17,901 nucleotides of DNA from Pseudomonadota bacterium (GTDB lineage Bacteria; UBA10199; 2-02-FULL-44-16; JAAZCA01): contig JAZDOG010000028.1 of assembly GCA_043798915.1 (NCBI GenBank), positions 1 through 17,901 of the forward strand. Reading direction: 5' to 3'. A program made the position numbers and the translations under genes. The notes under the pieces were generated by a model, which was not told the origin of the DNA, did no database searches, and saw nothing but the letters and a program-made list of their open reading frames with translations. This document shows positions 3,676-17,326 of this stretch, piece after piece (position 1 is the stretch's first letter; every line of letters begins with the position of its first letter).

Positions 3676-6165
<2,490 letters not shown>

Positions 6166-6188: not shown

Positions 6189-6230
6189 TAAAGGGGACGT
6201 TTCTCCTTCAAAAGAGAAACGTCCCCTTTA
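6189..6230. terminator. Perfect 17-bp inverted repeat, probable bidirectional terminator
   Basis: TAAAGGGGACGTTTCTC (6189-6205), 8-nt loop, GAGAAACGTCCCCTTTA (6214-6230), between the convergent hppA and methyltransferase genes. Confidence 0.8.
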
Positions 6231-6233
6231 TCA

Positions 6234-7058
6234 TCAATCGACCCATCTCCACAAGCGTTCGGTCATCTTGAGAGGGTCGTCGGGGTGGGGCTTTATGATG
6301 AGTTCCAGCCCGGCGCTGTCGCCCTGGGTGACTTGGCGCATCTCGACGGGGAGGATGCCCTGCTTCCAGTGCGTGGGGGCCACGAGTGGCGAGGAATCCG
6401 TCGCTTCGCCACGCCCCCAGGTGGTCCGGGGCCAGACGGCGAAGACGCGGACGGCGCCGCTCCTTTCACAGCGGAACTCGTGTTCGACCTGTATCGATTC
6501 CGGAATCTTCTTCTGAAAATCCACAGCGACAATCCTCGACGGCGGCCCCATCAGGTCCATTCCCTTGACGGAGGCGATGTCGGCAGGTCTGTCGATCTTT
6601 GGCAGGCGGCAGCAGGGGGCGCCCCAGAGCTCCAGGCGCTCCGGGATGATGCGCCCGCCGCGTTTAAGGAGGCGTTTTTTTGCGTCGGCCAGGGTGGCGA
6701 GGATGTTTTCGTCGAAGGCGAAGCTCCCCACGGTTTCGCAGATCGCGATGTCGGCGCGAGCGGCGAGATCGAGATCGAAGGAGAGCCCGTTCACAAATGC
6801 GATTTTGTCTGAGACGCCCTCGCGTCTGGCATTCAGCTTTGCCTCGTCAAGCGCCTCGCTGTCGAAGTCCACGGCCCACACCAGCTTCGCACCGGCCTTG
6901 GCCGCCGCGATAGCCAGGAGCCCGAGCCCCGTCCCGATGTCGAGGACGACGTCGCCCGGCTTCACGGATTTTGCGACGGCTCGGACGAGCGGCCCGGTCC
7001 TCAAGGGATCGTCCACCATGTGCGCGTGCCTTTTGCCAGTTCTCGATGAAAGCGCCAT
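6234..7058 (-). CDS. SAM-dependent methyltransferase with PRMT (protein arginine N-methyltransferase) architecture
   Basis: HxxMxxDxxR, VLDIGTGLG, double-E loop (E108-TVGSFAFD-E117), LKRGGRIIP, and C-terminal SP...THWKQ. Confidence 0.8.
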   Translation of the reverse strand: MALSSRTGKRHAHMVDDPLRTGPLVRAVAKSVKPGDVVLDIGTGLGLLAIAAAKAGAKLVWAVDFDSEALDEAKLNARREGVSDKIAFVNGLSFDLDLAARADIAICETVGSFAFDENILATLADAKKRLLKRGGRIIPERLELWGAPCCRLPKIDRPADIASVKGMDLMGPPSRIVAVDFQKKIPESIQVEHEFRCERSGAVRVFAVWPRTTWGRGEATDSSPLVAPTHWKQGILPVEMRQVTQGDSAGLELIIKPHPDDPLKMTERLWRWVD

Positions 7059-7061
7059 ATT

Positions 7062-8000
7062 TTATGCCTGCGCCTTTCCGCAGAATTCCTCGTAGAAGAG
7101 TCCCCATTTGACGCCGCGGTCGCTGATGGTCGCATTGGCAAACCCCAAGGCGCTCATCGATTCGTGCAGGAGGCATGCGCCGGCGAGTATCACGTCGGCG
7201 CGCTCCGGGATGAGGCCGGGCATGCGCTTTCGCTCCTCGAGCGTCATCCTCTTGAATGCGTCCACGATGCCGCGCAGGTCGTCGATCTTGAGTCTGCCGC
7301 CGTGGACCAGGGCAGGGTCGTAGGTCGCAAGTTTGAGATGCATCGCCATGAGCGTGGTGGCGGTCCCGGCGGTGGCGACGAGCGTCCTGTCGTGCGGCCT
7401 GGAATAGATCTCCGGCTCGATGTCCGCCTTGAGCGAGGCCCGGATACGAGAGCGAAGCGCGAGGATATCGGCGTCGGAAGGCGGGTCGTTTTTTATAAAC
7501 TCCTCCGTGAGCGAGACACAGCCCAGGTTCAAGCTCCTGAAGCGGAGAGGTCCCGGTTTGCCGTTGCTTCGCTCCCTGCTCACGAACTCGGTGGAACCCC
7601 CGCCGATGTCGATGACGACGATGTCGTCGCCGAAGTCGCGGGCCGCAGAGGCAAAGGTGAGCGTGGCTTCGCGGTCGAACGATATGATTTCGATCTCGAG
7701 ACCGAGCGACCGCCTTGCGAGCAGCAGGAAGTCCGCCGCGTTCCTTGCGTTTCGAAGGGCCGCCGTCCCGATCGCTGCGACGCGGCGGACGCCGTGCTTT
7801 ACGCAGAGCTCCCAATAGGAAGAGAGCGCATCGAGCGTGCGCTTGGACGCGGCGCCGGATATCTCTCCGCTTTTTCCGAGCCCTTCGCCCAGCCTCGTCA
7901 TCATGGCCCTGTCCTCGACGACGCGCACGCTGCCGTCCGGCACGGCTTCGCCGATGAGGAGGAGAACGGAGTTGGTGCCTATGTCTATAGTGGCAAACAT
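7062..8000 (-). CDS. ppx: Ppx/GppA family phosphatase, short form with no C-terminal HD domain
   Basis: Start MFATIDIGTNS at ATG 8000, 2 nt after the tolB stop. TRLGEG, GTAALRNARN, REA catalytic Glu, DIGGGSTE, LGCVSLTE, RADVILAG, SDRGVKWG. Confidence 0.9.
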   Translation of the reverse strand: MFATIDIGTNSVLLLIGEAVPDGSVRVVEDRAMMTRLGEGLGKSGEISGAASKRTLDALSSYWELCVKHGVRRVAAIGTAALRNARNAADFLLLARRSLGLEIEIISFDREATLTFASAARDFGDDIVVIDIGGGSTEFVSRERSNGKPGPLRFRSLNLGCVSLTEEFIKNDPPSDADILALRSRIRASLKADIEPEIYSRPHDRTLVATAGTATTLMAMHLKLATYDPALVHGGRLKIDDLRGIVDAFKRMTLEERKRMPGLIPERADVILAGACLLHESMSALGFANATISDRGVKWGLFYEEFCGKAQA

Positions 8001-8002
8001 AT

Positions 8003-9274
8003 TTACTCCACTCGGGGTCCCCAGCTCGGGAGCATTCCGTTGCCCTCCGAGACCTTCGTCTGGTTGGAGCCGTCGGCGCGCATGAGGAATATCGCCGGCG
8101 CACCGCCCCGCGTGGAGGAGAAGGTGACGAACCGGCCGTCCGGCGAGAAGTAGGGATGCTCGTTGCTGCCGGTCCCCACCGTCAGGCGCTGGATGTTGCT
8201 GCCGTCGGTGTTCATGATGAAGATGTCGAACGTTCCGCCGTCGCGGCCGGCGAAGACGATCTTGTCGCCGAGCGGCGAACAGCTCGGCATGTCGTTCTGG
8301 TAGCCGACGAAGGTGAGCCTCTGGGCGCTGCCGCCGGTGACCGGTATCCGGTAGAGGTGAAGGCCGCCCGCGCGCTCGGAGGCGAACACGAGCGAGGCAC
8401 CGTCGGCGGACCATGCGGGCGAGACGTCGATCACCTCGCTCTTCGTGAGGCGCAGCATCTTGCCGCCGCCCGGCGGCATAGCGAAGATGTTGTTGATGCC
8501 GGCGATGGACGACGAGAGGGCTATCGTCTTGCCGTCTGGTGACCACTTGGGCGTGATGTTTGCTCCGCCGCTCGTGATCCTCCGGAAATTCTTCTTGCCG
8601 GGCGAGGCCGTGTAGAGGTCCGGGTTTCCCTTCATGTATGACGTGAAGACGAGCTGCGTGCCCTCGGGCGACCAGTTCGATCCGAAATTGAGCGACTTGC
8701 TCTTCGTGACGGCGGTCGGGGCGTTGCCGTCCATGTCCATGACGTAGATGTCCTTGCTGCCCTTGCCGGACTGGACGGTGTAGGTGATCCTGGTGTTGAA
8801 GACGCCGCGGATCGCCGTGAGCGACTCCATGATCTCGTCTGAAAACCTGTGCGCCACCTCGCGCATATGTTTTTTGTCGGCCTTGTACTGTTTGCCGACG
8901 AGCATCTGGCGGTCCATCGTGTCGAAGAGGCGGAGCGTCACCACCGTGTTGCCGCTCTCTTTTTTTACCTCTCCCTTCACGAGCGCCAGCGCCTCGATGG
9001 CCGCCCAGTAGTCGAAGCGTATCGTCTCCTGGGATATTCCTTCTTTCTTCTCCACGCTCTGATATGCGGATTCCGGCACGAGCCTGAAATAGCCCGAGAG
9101 GGTCATGTCGTTCCGGATTATCTTTGCGATCTCTTCGCCAATACCTCCGCCCCGGATATCGGGTATGGCGATCGGAAACTTCTGCTCCGAGGGCTGGTCG
9201 ATCGGGATGTAGATGCGCGCGTGCGCCACGGAGGACACGAAGAGCAGGATTAAGATGGTCGCGAGCTTTTTCAT
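8003..9274 (-). CDS. tolB: Tol-Pal system beta-propeller protein TolB
   Basis: Signal peptide ending VAHA; TolB_N features (IIRNDMTLSGYF, AHRFSDEI...GVFNTRI); repeated PxWSPDG-type (PD40) blades; downstream of tolQRA. Confidence 0.92.
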   Translation of the reverse strand: MKKLATILILLFVSSVAHARIYIPIDQPSEQKFPIAIPDIRGGGIGEEIAKIIRNDMTLSGYFRLVPESAYQSVEKKEGISQETIRFDYWAAIEALALVKGEVKKESGNTVVTLRLFDTMDRQMLVGKQYKADKKHMREVAHRFSDEIMESLTAIRGVFNTRITYTVQSGKGSKDIYVMDMDGNAPTAVTKSKSLNFGSNWSPEGTQLVFTSYMKGNPDLYTASPGKKNFRRITSGGANITPKWSPDGKTIALSSSIAGINNIFAMPPGGGKMLRLTKSEVIDVSPAWSADGASLVFASERAGGLHLYRIPVTGGSAQRLTFVGYQNDMPSCSPLGDKIVFAGRDGGTFDIFIMNTDGSNIQRLTVGTGSNEHPYFSPDGRFVTFSSTRGGAPAIFLMRADGSNQTKVSEGNGMLPSWGPRVE

Positions 9275-9302: not shown

Positions 9303-10178
9303 TCATTGCGGCTTCATTCTCGGATCAAACTCTATCAGAAAGCCCTCGTTGTAGGCTTCCCATGCGAGGCGGTCGGGCGGCGTCGGGAAGGGGGAGGCCT
9401 TTTTCACGGCGCGGATGGCCGACTGGTCGAACGAGGCGTTGCCCGAGGCCCGCTCCAGCCGCGTCGACGTGACTTCGCCGTCCACGTTGATTCTGACATC
9501 GATGCGGGAGCTGAACCTCTTGCCGCCCTCTTCGGCGTACACGGTCGGCACGACCCACTCCCTGATGATCCTGCCGCGCACCATCGCCTGGTACTTGAGA
9601 TACTCCGGATCCGAAGGCGAAACGCGCAGCGGCTTGTCGCTCGTGCCGTATTTGTATCCTTCGTTGCCGGCGGCAACCTGGGCGGCCTCCGGCACCACCT
9701 GCCGGCCAGTCAGCTGCTTGTCTATCTTTGCCAGCGCGTTCTGTATCTGCCGGTCCGCTTTCGAAGCCGCCTTTGGCTTGAGCTTCGCATCCGTCTTCGT
9801 CATCTTCGGCGTCTTGATCTCAGGGCGCGGCTCCGGTTTCACCTGTTCCTTGGGCTTCTCCTCCGCCGTTTTCTCGGGCGGCGCCTTCATCTCCGGGGCG
9901 AGCGCCTTCATCTCCGGCGCCTCGGGCTGGAAGGTCTTCTGCTGTTCCTCGATGGTGCTCTGGGGCAGTTGTTCTGCCTTCTTGAGCCCCAGGCCGAGAT
10001 CCTCGCCCGTGCCGCGGGGCAGCTCGACCCACGTCACGTCTATCCTCATCGGCTTCTCCCTGAACGGGAAATTGAGTCCCGGGGTGACCGAGAGCGTTAT
10101 CAGGATCACCATATGGAAGATTGCGGAGGAGATGATCGGCTTCCGCAAGCGGGAGCCGTTTGACAGCCGTGTTCTCAC
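9303..10178 (-). CDS. tolA: TolA/TonB-family energy transducer
   Basis: Single TM with SAIFH (S-xxx-H) motif, Pro/Lys/Glu-rich linker, C-terminal SGNASFDQSAIRAVKKASPFP; lies between tolR and tolB. GTG start is tentative. Confidence 0.85.
   Translation of the reverse strand: MRTRLSNGSRLRKPIISSAIFHMVILITLSVTPGLNFPFREKPMRIDVTWVELPRGTGEDLGLGLKKAEQLPQSTIEEQQKTFQPEAPEMKALAPEMKAPPEKTAEEKPKEQVKPEPRPEIKTPKMTKTDAKLKPKAASKADRQIQNALAKIDKQLTGRQVVPEAAQVAAGNEGYKYGTSDKPLRVSPSDPEYLKYQAMVRGRIIREWVVPTVYAEEGGKRFSSRIDVRINVDGEVTSTRLERASGNASFDQSAIRAVKKASPFPTPPDRLAWEAYNEGFLIEFDPRMKPQ
9881..9920. repeat. 21-nt tandem duplication in the tolA linker (APEMKAL-APEMKAP)
   Basis: GCGCCTTCATCTCCGG at 9881 and again at 9902. 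Confidence 0.8.
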
Positions 10179-10210: not shown

Positions 10211-10648
10211 CTATTGAGGCTGAGGCGGCGCTTCGGTTTCTGGCTGGGTGATCATGCCGATGCGGTCGACCCCCGCCTTCTTCGCCAGCGACATGACCTT
10301 GACCACCATGCCGTAGCGCAGGTCGGTGTCGGCCTTGATGAAGAGATCCTTGTCCTCTTTGGCCGAATAGATGGCCTGGAGTCTTCCCTCAAGATCATCC
10401 ACCGGGATCGAGGTCTTGTCGTCGCCAAGGAATATGCCGCCGGCCTGCTGGAGCGTGAGTATCACGTCGGTCTTCGTGCGCTTGAGCGCGGGCGCTGCGG
10501 CCTCCGGCAGATGCACGGGCAGCCCCTGCTGCAGGAGCGGGGCTGTGACCATGAAGATGATGAGAAGCACGAGCATCACGTCCACAAAGGGCGTGATGTT
10601 GATCTCGGAGAGCACTCGGTTGTGACTGCCGTTTCTATGAACGATCAT
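10211..10648 (-). CDS. tolR: TolR/ExbD
   Basis: SEINITPFVDVMLVLLIIFMVTAP; FIKADTDLRYG. Confidence 0.93.
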   Translation of the reverse strand: MIVHRNGSHNRVLSEINITPFVDVMLVLLIIFMVTAPLLQQGLPVHLPEAAAPALKRTKTDVILTLQQAGGIFLGDDKTSIPVDDLEGRLQAIYSAKEDKDLFIKADTDLRYGMVVKVMSLAKKAGVDRIGMITQPETEAPPQPQ

Positions 10649-10666: not shown

Positions 10667-11395
10667 TCAGCTGAAGTATTCGCGGTTGATCTTCGCCCAG
10701 AAGTCATCCGTGAAGTCGATCAGGTCCTTGGAGACGAGCCTGATCTTGTTGACGTAGATGTTGTAGAAGATCACCGCGGGGATCGCGGCCGCAAGGCCGA
10801 TGGCGGTTGCGATGAGCGCTTCGGCGATGTGGGGTCCAACGATCGCGAGGCTCGTCGCGCCGGTGCGGCCGATCTTCCAGAAGGCGTTCAGGATTCCCCA
10901 CACGGTGCCGAACAGCCCGATGAACGGGGCTGCGCTGCCTGTCGTGGCCAGGAACGGCACGCCGTATTCCATCTCGGCGATTTCATCCTCGGCCGCCCGC
11001 CTGATTTCCTTTTCGACGACTATTGCGGAGTGCGGCGATTTCGTCTGGTTTTCCCGGAGCGTGTCGATGCCCGCCTTGAAGACGCTGAAGGCCGGGCTCT
11101 TTCGGAACGAACCCTTCGACACGATGGCGTCTATGGATTTCGACTGCCAGAAGAGCTGATAGAAGCGGTCGGAGCGCTTTTTGGCGTTCTTGAGCTGGCG
11201 GTGTTTGCTGCCGATGATCGCCCAGGAGACCACGGAAAAGATGACCAGCAGGAGGAGCGTAAGCTGGACCACCGTGTTCGCGTGCAGGACGAGCGAGATG
11301 AGATTGTGGTCGCCGCCCATCTCCGTCGCCTCTATGACGCCCCCGGCCTGTGCCGGTGCCTGTGCAAGAAGACCCATGATTGCCAAGAAATTCAT
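10667..11395 (-). CDS. tolQ: TolQ (MotA/TolQ/ExbB proton channel)
   Basis: FLATTGSAAPFIGLFGTVWGI; IAEALIATAIGLAAAIPAV. Confidence 0.93.
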   Translation of the reverse strand: MNFLAIMGLLAQAPAQAGGVIEATEMGGDHNLISLVLHANTVVQLTLLLLVIFSVVSWAIIGSKHRQLKNAKKRSDRFYQLFWQSKSIDAIVSKGSFRKSPAFSVFKAGIDTLRENQTKSPHSAIVVEKEIRRAAEDEIAEMEYGVPFLATTGSAAPFIGLFGTVWGILNAFWKIGRTGATSLAIVGPHIAEALIATAIGLAAAIPAVIFYNIYVNKIRLVSKDLIDFTDDFWAKINREYFS

Positions 11396-11434: not shown

Positions 11435-11464
11435 ATACTAAGGTTCAAGGGGCACGGATGTCAA
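11435..11464 (-). promoter_or_regulatory. Candidate sigma70 promoter for the tol operon
   Basis: Minus strand TTGACA (11464-11459), 18-nt spacer, TAGTAT (11440-11435), about 40 nt upstream of the tolQ ATG. Confidence 0.55.
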
Positions 11465-11742: not shown

Positions 11743-12240
11743 ATGGGAGGCGGAATGATAAACAAAGTGGAGGGCGCAGTTTCACAGCCCAAATTGGAAC
11801 AGCGGAATTTCGCCCGCCAGCTGGCGGCATTCATGAAAGCGAAGAAGGCAGGGGATTTTGAAAAAAAAGAAGTCCTCTACAACGACCACGATCACCCAAA
11901 GGATTACGCGACAGGCGTGGGTGTACCGCTGTCCGCCTTTTTCCACATCGTGCCGGAGGCCCGGATGGCTAAAGGAGAAGAGGCGAAGCTTGCCGCCGTG
12001 GAGAAGTTTTTCGACGGTTGGGAACAGGTCAAGGATAAGAAGGGGCGTCCGTGCATCCTTGGCTATGAGAAGGATAACAGTATCGTAGCACAACAGAAGC
12101 TGGCGTCGCGCAGTATGGTGTTTGAGCCGGAAGAGGAAGAGCGGCCGACGGCCGTTGTCGGCAAAAACGCTGCAGGTATTCCAACGGACAAAGCTGCAGT
12201 GCCATTCGGCAAAGAGCCGCCTCCGTTTCCTAAGAAGTGA
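11743..12240 (+). CDS. Hypothetical protein (165 aa), hydrophilic
   Basis: AGGAGG RBS before ATG 11743 (alternative ATG 11755), own promoter and terminator; no family motif recognised. Confidence 0.75.
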   Translation: MGGGMINKVEGAVSQPKLEQRNFARQLAAFMKAKKAGDFEKKEVLYNDHDHPKDYATGVGVPLSAFFHIVPEARMAKGEEAKLAAVEKFFDGWEQVKDKKGRPCILGYEKDNSIVAQQKLASRSMVFEPEEEERPTAVVGKNAAGIPTDKAAVPFGKEPPPFPKK

Positions 12241-12309: not shown

Positions 12310-13323
12310 CTATTTGCAATACTTCTGCATGCGCTTTGCGTAGCCGCTGCCTGCCGGGCGCAGATCCGCCGCCCGCCTGGCCTCGTTGCAGGCCTCAGCT
12401 TTGTTGCCGTAGCGTTGCCATAGCAGAAGTGAATAGTTGAAATGGGTATGCGCGAAGCCTGGATCGTATCGCATCGCCTCCTGATAGAGCTTCCTGATGC
12501 GGTCGGTCTCATTATTCCCCTGCGGCGACTTCCAAAGCATCGTCGCCAGATTATCGTAGTAAACAGCCATCGCGCCGAGCGCTGTCAACTTCGACTGTTC
12601 GGTGTGGCCCTGGTCGGAGACGATGTGGTGATAGAGGTCTACTATAAATATCTTTTCCGGATGATCCGGATCGAGGTGCAGGCCGATGGCCATATGTTCG
12701 GTGATCTCCGGATCGATGCGGTCTTTTTCGACGTAGAGAAATTCAGGCGCCAGGCCCGCAAGCCTGAAGACAGTGTATGCAAGCCTTGAGAGTTCGCTGC
12801 AGTCGCCTTCCCGCCGACCGTCGGGCTGGACCAGAAATTCCATGAGCATCATTTCCCTTGATGCCCCCTCCACCTCCACTACGACAAAGCTCACGCCTTT
12901 GGCGGACTCCATCCATGAGACGAGTTCAGCGACAAACGCGCGATTGAATTCGAGTGTTCCCTCCACCAGGCCCTTTGCCTTTGTCTCTGCCCTCGCTTTG
13001 GCGATAGCGCCGCCTATCTTCACGAGCATCTGGTTGTCGGTGTTTGTGAGCGGATTGAAATCGTTCACAAGCCATGGAACGCGGAAGGTTGTTTTCGTGG
13101 AGACGAGGTCGGTGAAGGGGCGCCCGGAATGGCCGCCGCTTGTCACGAACTCGTCCTCTTCTTTCTCGAGGAGGGAGATCGAATTTGCATATATCGACCT
13201 GGCCCTGGCCTGGCAGTTCTGGGCGGGACTCAGCTTGGCCTTTATATCCCCGGGCAGAATATCGTAGAGGACTGCCGCCTTGGGATCCGATGCCGCGAGG
13301 TTTGTGCATGCGTCATTGGACAT
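12310..13323 (-). CDS. Transglutaminase-like (Cys-His-Asp) domain protein with C-terminal TPR-like repeats
   Basis: EGDC175SELS...FRLAGL, EH210MAIGL, IVD229L; C-terminal LYQEAMRYDPGFAHTHFNYSLLL...EARRAADLRP. Confidence 0.65.
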   Translation of the reverse strand: MSNDACTNLAASDPKAAVLYDILPGDIKAKLSPAQNCQARARSIYANSISLLEKEEDEFVTSGGHSGRPFTDLVSTKTTFRVPWLVNDFNPLTNTDNQMLVKIGGAIAKARAETKAKGLVEGTLEFNRAFVAELVSWMESAKGVSFVVVEVEGASREMMLMEFLVQPDGRREGDCSELSRLAYTVFRLAGLAPEFLYVEKDRIDPEITEHMAIGLHLDPDHPEKIFIVDLYHHIVSDQGHTEQSKLTALGAMAVYYDNLATMLWKSPQGNNETDRIRKLYQEAMRYDPGFAHTHFNYSLLLWQRYGNKAEACNEARRAADLRPAGSGYAKRMQKYCK

Positions 13324-15038: not shown

Positions 15039-15809
15039 TCACTTCTCTTTCCCGAAAAATCCCGGCAGGCGGATCTTCAGATATCCGCCGAGATCGCAGC
15101 TCTTTCGCTTGGTGACCGGTCCTCTCTGTTCGTTCATCGAAGAGGTCTTGATATCTATCGTCCAGATGGTGGGTGCGATGCAGCTCTCTACCGTTTCGCA
15201 CTCGACGCTCATCTGGCGGCTGATGGCCGAGTAGCCCATGAGCACGATCGTGTCCTTGCCGCGCCAGTAGGCGTCGTCCACTCCTTCGAGCGCCGAGCAG
15301 TCGAGTATTTTCCTGGCTCGCTTTTCGGATGGCGTGTAGAGCGCCACTCCGCACGGGATCTCTATATAGGGCTGCCAGGCATCCCCCTCTTTCTTGTAGA
15401 GGAGCCTGCCCCAATAGGGGTTTAAGCGCCGCTTGCCGTCCGGGGATTTCAGATAGAACATCCTGCCCGGCCCTTCGCCCATCTGCTCCGGGCTGAGCAT
15501 CGGGATATCTTCGTCGTAGATCTGGGACTGGCCGATGTCTTCCATCGTGTCGAGCGAGAAATTGGACACGCATTTTTTCCACCACGCCGCCCACGCCTTG
15601 ACCTTCTTGTCGCCGGAGATCTCAACCACCTTGTTGACCTCGGGCGCTTCCTCTTTCTGCCTGGTGAGGTCGACCTCGCTTTCGCCGAGATGTTTGAATT
15701 TGCCTCGAGCCGGACCCCCGCTCTTGTATCCGTTGAAGAAGGCGACGAAGATGAATGCGAAGAAGACAAGAATAGCGGCCTTGCGGCCGATGTGAAGAAA
15801 TCGTTTCAT
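15039..15809 (-). CDS. Hypothetical N-terminally membrane-anchored, probably periplasmic protein
   Basis: ATG 15809 preceded by AAGGGGG; basic N-terminus plus hydrophobic AAILVFFAFIFVAFF; six Cys in the soluble domain; tightly packed between neighbours. Confidence 0.75.
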   Translation of the reverse strand: MKRFLHIGRKAAILVFFAFIFVAFFNGYKSGGPARGKFKHLGESEVDLTRQKEEAPEVNKVVEISGDKKVKAWAAWWKKCVSNFSLDTMEDIGQSQIYDEDIPMLSPEQMGEGPGRMFYLKSPDGKRRLNPYWGRLLYKKEGDAWQPYIEIPCGVALYTPSEKRARKILDCSALEGVDDAYWRGKDTIVLMGYSAISRQMSVECETVESCIAPTIWTIDIKTSSMNEQRGPVTKRKSCDLGGYLKIRLPGFFGKEK

Positions 15810-15820
15810 GGCATCCCCCT

Positions 15821-17326
15821 TCACCATTTTATACGATATATCCCGCCGAATTTTTTGCGCAGGTAGGCCAGGAAAAAGCGCGCATCCGGCTTCTCGCCGG
15901 TGGCGCGCGCGATCAGCTCCGCCGGGGCGTATCTGCGCCCGTGCCGGTGAATCCTGTCGCGGAGCCAGGCGAGGATCGTAGAAAAATCGCCCGCCGCCAT
16001 CTTGCCATCAACGTTCCTCACCTGCTTTCGAATGGTTGCCCAGAGCTGCGCTGCGTATAGATTGCCGAGCAGGTACGTCGGAAAATAGCCGAAGCCCCCC
16101 TGGGCCCAGTGCGTATCCTGGAGGACTCCCTCCGCGTCGTTTTTCGGCCGGATGCCGAGCAGCCCCTCCATCCTGCTGTTCCAGAATGCCGGCAGTTCGC
16201 CCACCTTCGTCTCTTTGGCGATGAGGGCCTTCTCGATTTCGTAGCGCAGGACCACGTGGAGGTTGTAGGTCGCCTCGTCGGCCTCCACGCGGATGGGCGA
16301 CGGCACCACCCTGTTGATCGCGTGCCAGAACTTTTCCGCTCCGACGCCCTTGAGCTGGCGCGCGAAGCGTTTTTTGAGCCGCGGCAGGAGGAATGAAACG
16401 AACGGGCGGCTGCGGCCGATCATGTTCTCCCAGAGCCGCGACTGCGATTCGTGGACGCCCAGCGACACCGCCTCAGCCAGCGGCGTGCTTAAGTTTTTTT
16501 CTTCGAAGCCCTGCTCGTAGAGCGCGTGCCCCGACTCGTGGATGACGCCGTAGAGGGACTGCGTGAGCAGCCTCTCGTTGTAGCGCGTCGTGATCCTGAC
16601 GTCCGTCGGCGCTATGCCGCAGCAGAAGGGGTGGGCCGAGCGGTCGAGGCGGCTCGCCTTGATGTCGATACCCATCGCCGCCATGACTTCGCGGAGCAGG
16701 GCCTCCTGGTCGCGCTCCGGGTAACGGCGGAGGAGGGGCTTCGTGTCGATGATCACACCGGAGTCGCGTATGGCGGCGACGATCGGTACGAGGCCCTTTT
16801 GCAGCTCGCCCACGATGGGGTCGAGTTCAGCCACTGTCATCCTGGGTTCGTAATCGTCGAGGAGGGCGTCGTAGGGGACCCCTTCGTAGCCCATGGCGTC
16901 CGCCTGGCGGCGTTTGAGATCGATGGTCTTTTCGAGCCACGGCGCGAATGCGGCAAAATCGGATTTCCGCCTGGCCTTTATCCACGCATCCTGGGCGAGC
17001 GATGCAACGCGCGACATTTCGCGGACGAGATCCGCCGGAAGCCTGGCCGACTTTTCATGGTCGCGCAGCCATTCGCGGACGCAGACGCGTTCATCGTCGG
17101 AGAGGGGGGAGGGATCAGCGGCGAGCTGCCGGAGCGAATCGCCGAGCGACGGATCGATGAGTTTTTCGTGTATGACTGCCGAGAGCGCTGCGGACTGCTC
17201 TGCCCGGGCGGCGGAGCCGCGCTCGGGCATCATCGTCTCATGGTCCCAGCCCACGACACCCGCTGCCTGTGCCAGGGCAGAGATGTCCTTCATCCTTGCG
17301 GCGATTTGCTGATAATTTTCGCCCAT
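15821..17326 (-). CDS. Carboxypeptidase, peptidase family M32 (Taq-like)
   Basis: WD.ETMMP, YDALLDDYEP, HPF, DVRITTRY, HESGH (HExxH), HESQS, IRVEADE, LQDTHW, GYFPTY. Confidence 0.96.
   Translation of the reverse strand: MGENYQQIAARMKDISALAQAAGVVGWDHETMMPERGSAARAEQSAALSAVIHEKLIDPSLGDSLRQLAADPSPLSDDERVCVREWLRDHEKSARLPADLVREMSRVASLAQDAWIKARRKSDFAAFAPWLEKTIDLKRRQADAMGYEGVPYDALLDDYEPRMTVAELDPIVGELQKGLVPIVAAIRDSGVIIDTKPLLRRYPERDQEALLREVMAAMGIDIKASRLDRSAHPFCCGIAPTDVRITTRYNERLLTQSLYGVIHESGHALYEQGFEEKNLSTPLAEAVSLGVHESQSRLWENMIGRSRPFVSFLLPRLKKRFARQLKGVGAEKFWHAINRVVPSPIRVEADEATYNLHVVLRYEIEKALIAKETKVGELPAFWNSRMEGLLGIRPKNDAEGVLQDTHWAQGGFGYFPTYLLGNLYAAQLWATIRKQVRNVDGKMAAGDFSTILAWLRDRIHRHGRRYAPAELIARATGEKPDARFFLAYLRKKFGGIYRIKW

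Follow-up and report, generated by a model that had tools for sequence, protein, structure and literature searches.

The gene described here occupies positions 6234..7058 on the minus strand of a 17,901-nucleotide stretch of bacterial DNA (contig JAZDOG010000028.1, assembly GCA_043798915.1), which we analyzed at its full length and refer to as the window. Its 274-amino-acid (aa) product (P0001) belongs, with near certainty, to the fold family of the protein arginine methyltransferases (PRMTs), and is a genuine variant of that known family, new in being built without a dimerization arm. Taken as a whole, our best explanation has about an even chance of being right: the protein would be a cytoplasmic, S-adenosylmethionine (SAM)-dependent N-methyltransferase of the PRMT family that acts on the guanidino nitrogen of arginine, and its substrate would be peptidyl arginine in a single housekeeping protein or a few.

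The translation of this ATG-started open reading frame (ORF) carries the hallmarks of eukaryotic type I PRMTs, as the original prediction had claimed from the letters alone, and every motif listed there is found at its residue. The N-terminal helix motif H11xxM14xxD17xxR20T21 (positions 6996..7028, on the minus strand like all motifs below), in full H11-A-H-M14-V-D-D17-P-L-R20-T21, aligns with hEEMiaDqvRT of PRMT6, and residues 6–15 form a helix in the predicted structure. It is followed by the SAM-binding motif I, V38LDIGTGLG46 (6921..6947), which matches the PRMT1 motif VLDVGSGTG given in sections of a PRMT1 review (PMC8619983), and by A52AKAGA57. The double-E loop E108-x8-E117 (6708..6737) reads CETVGSFAFDENI, with eight residues between the glutamates; its PRMT6 counterpart in the alignment is SEWMGYGLLHES, and the spacing equals that of E144/E153 in PRMT1 (PMC8619983, same sections). 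Further along are L131KRGGRIIP139 and the stretch SP..APT229HWKQ233, of which the THW loop, T229HWKQ233 (6360..6374, with T229 to Q233 running from 6374 to 6360), aligns with THWKQ of PRMT6. The beta-barrel domain comprises about residues 141–274 (6237..6638). The G+C content of the gene region is 0.62, like that of its surroundings.

Searches of the PDB sequences (phmmer) place the protein among the same enzymes. The best match is PRMT6, with E = 3.2e-23 and 85.5 bits, and both domains are matched, in two stretches: query residues 11–149 correspond to chain residues 30–169 and query residues 163–265 to chain residues 213–326. Next come PRMT1 of Naegleria and of yeast, CARM1, PRMT3, PRMT7, PRMT8 and PRMT2; over PRMT6, PRMT1, CARM1 and PRMT3 the E values range from 3e-23 to 1e-13. 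The L11 methyltransferase chains 3cjt and 1ufk match residues 24–88 only (E = 4e-11).

This last match bears on the name under which relatives of the gene are filed. Those with a name go, in NCBI records, by '50S ribosomal protein L11 methyltransferase', 'predicted RNA methylase' and similar, and the top Pfam family is PrmA (E = 1.3e-15), which would make the protein the lysine methyltransferase of ribosomal protein L11. We regard that identity as close to refuted. The Pfam match places residues 26–138 on profile positions 153–257 of 296 only, is confined to the Rossmann part and leaves the N-terminal, L11-binding part of the profile unmatched, and the C-terminal half is a PRMT barrel, with Pfam PRMT_C recognized over residues 162–260 at 27.8 bits, just above its cut-off of 27. 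For TIGR00406 (prmA) the score is 52.3 bits against a cut-off of 183.15, and no model cut-off was reached among the NCBIfam matches listed. Another gene in the same genome scores 157.7 bits for PrmA, compared with 51.6 bits for the PRMT-like gene, and is a better candidate for PrmA. The likeness to PrmA is that of a related class I Rossmann domain, from which the database label of the relatives stems, whereas the PRMT barrel and the double-E and THW loops set the two apart. As a practical consequence, relatives of this gene carry a wrong L11 methyltransferase label in the public records.

The predicted structure leads to the same assignment. An AlphaFold2 model built on the alignment of 26 relatives has a mean predicted local distance difference test score (pLDDT) of 94.8 and a predicted template modeling score (pTM) of 0.90, and its C-terminal domain is all-strand with pLDDT above 90. 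The top Foldseek match is PRMT6 (5fqo; E = 2.2e-25, TM score 0.86 by query). In VIA-align the same structure gives Z = 29.8 with 270 of 274 residues aligned at a root-mean-square deviation of 2.7 Å and 28% identity, the structural alignment extends over residues 1–274, and the best 50 structural matches listed are all type I PRMTs. A Rossmann domain and a PRMT beta-barrel are thus both modeled at high confidence, and on this point, that the protein is a PRMT relative and not PrmA, the original prediction is borne out by sequence and fold alike.

What the original prediction overlooked, while reading the motifs correctly, is that parts of the eukaryotic enzymes are missing. At the site of the helical dimerization arm of eukaryotic PRMTs there is only a short linker, residues 150–162 (6573..6611, minus strand): in the phmmer alignment these 13 residues stand opposite 43 in PRMT6 (chain residues 170–212), and no helical arm is seen there in the AlphaFold2 model. 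The same 14-residue stretch (residues 149–162) recurs in 21/26 members of alignment A1, while three members have 31–50 residues. At the other end, the N-terminal alpha-X segment is absent, because only 10 residues precede H11; these residues hold no YFxxY-type motif, which we take to be the mark of that segment, and [YF]FxxY was found upstream of motif I in none of 262 homologues. Sections of the PRMT1 review describe the arm-mediated dimer as crucial for the activity of PRMT1, with arm mutants and deletions as the key evidence, for SAM binding (PMC8619983). With no arm of its own, the present enzyme must act as a monomer or via a different interface; a homodimer prediction from two copies and alignment A1 returned 'no answer', with a score of 0.00. 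A 274-aa core with all catalytic residues and no arm would be a simple, expressible test case for whether dimerization through the arm belongs to PRMT chemistry itself or was added in eukaryotes.

Among the relatives, one from the taxonomic order of the window's genome (G015, L029:5818-7095) has an insertion of ∼100 residues at the arm site, so that motif I and the THW loop are 285 residues apart, compared with 187 in the window protein. Another genome (G032) carries two near-identical PRMT-like copies on different contigs (L027, L178).

The catalytic loops are invariant in the family. In an alignment of 26 members with 44–65% identity, M14, D17, R20, S93, E108, E117, I119, T229, H230 and W231 never vary, nor do the motif I glycines G42, G44 and G46; residue 64, the acidic post-I position, is D or E throughout, and Q233 is found in 24/26. 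According to sections of the PRMT1 review the same motifs have defined roles, and the double-E glutamates hold the guanidinium group (PMC8619983). The invariant catalytic loops thus fit an active guanidino N-methyltransferase, as the original prediction had it. The invariant I119 falls at the position where type I enzymes have a methionine, which we take to be the second methionine of the substrate pocket. For H11 the picture depends on where the genes were started: it is H in 16 members and Y in one, and is missing in the nine that were called from M14. An in-frame RH[AS]xM precedes M14 in the DNA of 11/11 loci of the window's own order that have a close (short-form) copy, and the longer start, ahead of M14, is therefore likely correct.

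How far does the family extend? With a cut-off of E ≤ 1e-3, a word-indexed search returned 112 proteins; close relatives of 250–310 aa make up about 95 of these, and all such relatives come from metagenomes or metagenome-assembled genomes. An exhaustive search returned 3523 cluster representatives at E ≤ 1e-10, of which 41 reached E ≤ 1e-30. Many prokaryotic PRMT_C clusters of 280–400 aa (Atlas and profile search) come from Actinomycetota, Acidobacteriota, Pseudomonadota, Myxococcota and some Archaea, and several are named 'protein arginine N-methyltransferase 1' by JGI. No sequence identifiable as eukaryotic was among the returns of the cluster-representative or the profile search. The phylum of the window is a small candidate phylum with 93 species genomes, all of one class, and among the genomes searched the clade is confined to it. 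With a presence cut-off of E ≤ 1e-25 the gene is present in 35/93 genomes, and in 25/63 if only high-quality genomes are counted. Its presence is nearly all-or-none by family: 11/12, 5/6, 3/3 and 4/5 genomes have it in families f1, f6, f15 and f18, respectively, and at the same cut-off 0/14, 0/10 and 0/6 in f7, f10 and f11. Most genomes that have the gene carry one copy of it, and no active partner PRMT accompanies it.

A maximum-likelihood tree of 39 rows, all bacterial and rooted at the midpoint for drawing only, separates the 32 rows from the phylum from 7 outgroup rows of other phyla with support 96/93. Families are monophyletic (for example, f1, f6 and f15, each with 100/99), and one long-branch row (G020) is placed unsurely. 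We interpret this as ancient inheritance by vertical descent in which the gene was lost repeatedly, giving a patchy distribution, and persistence and monophyly would fit long purifying selection on a working enzyme.

Further information comes from the gene neighborhood. In the window the PRMT-like gene is the last of a tight minus-strand row that consists of tolQ (10667-11395; Pfam MotA_ExbB), tolR (10211-10648; ExbD), a tolA-like gene (9303-10178; TonB_2/TonB_C), tolB (8003-9274; TolB_N and PD40) and a gene for a short Ppx/GppA-family phosphatase (7062..8000, with an ATG at 8000; Ppx-GppA, 4.7e-53). Between tolB and ppx there are 2 nt, and the PRMT-like start comes 3 nt after ppx. A promoter-like site upstream of tolQ (11435..11464, minus strand), with 10/12 consensus matches, could be the start of an operon; like it, the putative terminator at the other end is a consensus match only: a hairpin with a perfect 19-pair stem (6189..6230, minus strand) directly after the PRMT-like stop codon. 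This hairpin lies between the convergent H+-pyrophosphatase and PRMT-like genes and could terminate transcription from both sides.

The ppx gene is upstream on the same strand in 10 of 13 loci of the window's own order, mostly with tolQRAB before it; in one of the remaining loci (G003) the PRMT-like gene stands by itself next to a ThiF-family gene, and two are cut by contig ends or have a distant form. Other families show other neighbors. The efp gene follows directly in three genomes of one family and is 2.2 kb away in a fourth; priA follows in four loci, in a priA-def context, with an M20 peptidase gene upstream in three of these. In four genomes from three families (L024, L170, L171 and L172; genomes G029, G091, G089 and G092) the gene directly upstream, in the same orientation, encodes a double-FHA-domain protein, and two of these genomes also have rho near the locus. 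Pfam detected no non-ribosomal peptide synthetase (NRPS), polyketide synthase or SznF-like domain among the 16 proteins of the window or among 50 proteins of other loci, which include the neighbors and the PRMT-like proteins themselves. The neighborhoods in the 32 phylum loci are thus of a housekeeping kind rather than biosynthetic clusters, yet no target can be named from them because the neighbors differ between families, tol-ppx being found only in the window's own order. The step made in the original prediction, from a housekeeping operon to a protein target, does not survive this comparison, since elsewhere the gene is found with efp, priA or the FHA gene, or alone. Ppx and the Tol proteins were also considered as partners and set aside; what links them to the gene is synteny within one order.

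If the protein works as its motifs suggest, SAM would bind in the Rossmann pocket through motif I, R20 and the acidic residue 64, and the guanidinium of the substrate would be clamped between E108 and E117 of the double-E loop, with the pocket closed by the THW loop and H230 paired with D17. This pocket appears type I-like, with methionine at position 14 and the THWKQ loop, so that the expected product would be monomethyl-arginine and perhaps asymmetric dimethyl-arginine. As substrate we would expect peptidyl arginine of a single housekeeping protein or of a few, and not of RGG-repeat proteins. The parts of this proposal differ in strength. Activity on a guanidino nitrogen is quite probable, because neither the double-E and THW loops nor the SAM site vary in the family. 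That the substrate is a protein is a best guess which could go either way, made because the loops are those of the protein-modifying type I enzymes and no biosynthetic cluster was found in the examined loci. Of the activity and protein target originally proposed, the first thus fits the conserved loops and the second draws no support from the context. The small size of the genomes, about 2–3 Mb, counts in favor of the proposal.

Several observations weigh against it. The enzyme has no dimerization arm although, according to sections of the review, PRMT1 deprived of its arm loses SAM binding and activity (PMC8619983), and what precedes H11 is ten residues without a YFxxY-type motif. The genome, in rough gene calls (1955 ORFs), has no glycine-arginine-rich repeat domain, and a scan for RGG-type repeats in the same ORFs found no 30-aa window with more than five overlapping motifs. 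For 58/93 genomes of the phylum no copy was found at E ≤ 1e-25, which makes the gene dispensable, and no neighbor is conserved across the families, which leaves no pointer to a particular protein target. Full-text literature searches turned up no measured activity for this clade or for any housekeeping bacterial PRMT homologue. Finally, the only characterized bacterial enzyme that can be tied to the fold, SznE/StzE, and this by inference from a neighborhood described below, acts on free L-arginine.

This enzyme is the model for an alternative in which the protein methylates a free guanidino small molecule (L-arginine, agmatine or similar) to give N-omega-methylarginine or a relative. Parts of one article describe SznE/StzE of streptozotocin biosynthesis as an arginine-guanidino methyltransferase with the product N-omega-methyl-L-arginine (PMC11705231), and parts of another, by Aravind and colleagues, report that the bacterial proteins most closely sister to eukaryotic PRMTs are encoded in secondary-metabolite operons (PMC3417536). 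A small substrate would also require neither an arm, nor an N-terminal substrate-recruiting domain, nor RGG proteins. The tie to the fold comes from a Streptomyces locus (L064:5725-10728), where a PRMT_C methyltransferase with 27% identity to our protein over query residues 3–253 is followed directly by a 474-aa haem-oxygenase-like and cupin protein and by an ATP-grasp enzyme; a LysE exporter also belongs to the set, and a DDE transposase is encoded immediately before the set. Haem-oxygenase-like plus cupin is what we take to be the SznF architecture, the gene set being szn-like, and from these neighbors, not from a comparison with the SznE sequence, we infer that the L064 protein is an SznE orthologue. 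However, in the window and the scanned phylum loci no SznF-like, ATP-grasp, NRPS or exporter gene adjoins the PRMT-like gene. In the tree the szn-like proteins belong to the outgroup, well away from the clade, and they have SHW where the clade has THW, with 213 residues from motif I to the loop compared with 187, about 26 more; the THWKQ loop in its SP..P.THWKQ context is that of protein-modifying type I PRMTs. We consider a free small-molecule substrate unlikely on balance, though it deserves serious attention.

Two other possibilities concern the chemistry itself. The PRMT fold could act on a non-guanidino nucleophile of a protein or peptide, such as lysine, the N-terminus or a side-chain amide: the bacterial relatives are described, in parts of the article of Aravind and colleagues, as a 'peptide methylase' radiation that includes domains in non-ribosomal peptide synthetases (PMC3417536), and isoleucine (I119) takes the place of the second type I pocket methionine. 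We think this distinctly improbable, as both double-E glutamates, the guanidinium holders according to sections of the PRMT1 review (PMC8619983), and the THW residues are invariant in 26/26, and the best sequence and fold matches are all arginine methyltransferases. Even less probable, to our mind, is a catalytically dead or weak PRMT-like binding or regulatory subunit, for want of the arm-mediated dimer for SAM binding, even if deletion of the arm inactivates PRMT1 according to the same sections (PMC8619983), trypanosomes have PRMT-like 'prozymes' (as named in the title of PDB 6dnz) and the gene is lost from many families of the phylum. Here the SAM-binding and catalytic positions are invariant or conservatively kept, and the gene is mostly a single copy with no active partner PRMT in the genome. 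Dead paralogues usually lose just those positions.

Methylation of a peptidyl arginine is thus the reading we prefer, and one specific lead to its target was followed. The tip loop of elongation factor P (EF-P) reads PGN[LKW]R[AG] or QGNKRG in 29/41 related genomes, with an arginine two residues after the asparagine (for example, G000 contig C12:43569-44123, locus L117:1492-2049, with relatives in loci L118-L167); this asparagine presumably stands at the position of the modified lysine of E. coli. Several genomes have a second EF-P copy of the PGKGNA type. As a general target EF-P was rejected, because its co-occurrence with the gene is weak: among the 41 genomes, which are related and so not independent, the N-type loop is found in 20 with the gene and 9 without, and the K-type alone in 7 without the gene and in 5 with it, five genomes that have the methyltransferase but only K-type EF-P. 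In the one family where the PRMT-like gene overlaps or abuts efp, in three genomes, the enzyme might methylate the conserved arginine of the PGN-x-R loop, but this is a long shot. EarP (PF10093) gave no match in the genome, and the control genomes were blank too. For context, according to parts of a 2026 review, roughly one in two bacterial genomes has EF-P of a type that falls into none of the known modification classes (PMC13602936).

Some features of the window lie outside this argument. The H+-pyrophosphatase gene (3676-6165, plus strand) encodes a protein of 829 aa that is extended at its N-terminus by a signal-like stretch and ends in a Cys-rich tail (…ACCCGSHAEQCAS…); the gene sits between a gene for a pyridoxal phosphate enzyme and the PRMT-like gene in the window genome only, and tblastn found none at this place in 11 syntenic loci. 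Three ORFs, 11743-12240 (plus strand), 12310-13323 (minus) and 15039-15827 (minus), of 165, 337 and 262 aa, have no Pfam match at E ≤ 1e-5. The 337-aa ORF overlaps a long upstream extension of a racemase ORF, whose Pfam match begins only at residue 137. A lookup of sequence words in sequencing runs listed no RNA run, and one DNA run shared 0.05 of the words.

As to wider significance, parts of a preprint report methylated arginine in many bacterial proteins (bioRxiv 10.1101/2023.06.29.546327), and the protein described here is a candidate writer for bacterial methylarginine. In full-text literature searches on bacterial or prokaryotic PRMTs we found no PRMT-type bacterial protein arginine methyltransferase that had been assigned. 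A bolder idea, which we hold only tentatively and would not expect to be right, is that the clade as a whole has the methylation of protein arginines as its dedicated housekeeping task, and performs it without the dimerization arm and the alpha-X segment on which eukaryotic PRMTs depend. If it were true, a bare Rossmann-plus-barrel core would be catalytically sufficient, and would represent a bacterial ground state from which the eukaryotic PRMTs were elaborated.

Among known systems the closest are the eukaryotic type I PRMTs, above all PRMT6 (5fqo/4c03), then PRMT1, PRMT3, PRMT8, PRMT2 and CARM1. They share the Rossmann-plus-barrel core, motif I, the acidic post-I residue, the HxxMxxDxxRT helix, the double-E loop with identical spacing and the THWKQ loop. 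However, their cores have 320–380 aa compared with 274 here, with an arm of ∼43 residues in place of 13 and methionine in place of I119, and they prefer glycine-arginine-rich repeats, whereas no RGG-rich protein was found in the rough gene calls of this bacterial genome. The SznE/StzE type, as represented by the L064 protein, is like ours a bacterial two-domain PRMT_C protein with the E-x8-E loop, and has an HxxMxxDxxRN helix; methylation of a guanidino nitrogen, described for SznE/StzE in parts of PMC11705231, would be common to both. It differs in its free L-arginine substrate and in standing beside SznF-like oxygenase and ATP-grasp genes, neither of which is a neighbor of the PRMT-like gene.

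Bacterial PRMT homologues as such are abundant, and a computational description of them by Aravind and colleagues dates from 2011–2012, the closest sisters also occurring inside NRPS proteins according to parts of that work (PMC3417536), so that the novelty claimed in the original prediction was overstated. The other, uncharacterized prokaryotic PRMT-like families have the same fold and loops and likewise no YFxxY segment, and automatic naming often makes them L11 methyltransferases too, but most are 20–40 residues longer at the arm site, with about 210 residues from motif I to the THW loop compared with 187 here, while in some sister families this distance is 173–177 residues. What further distinguishes the clade of the window from these families is that it is found in housekeeping contexts and, among the genomes searched, in a single candidate phylum.

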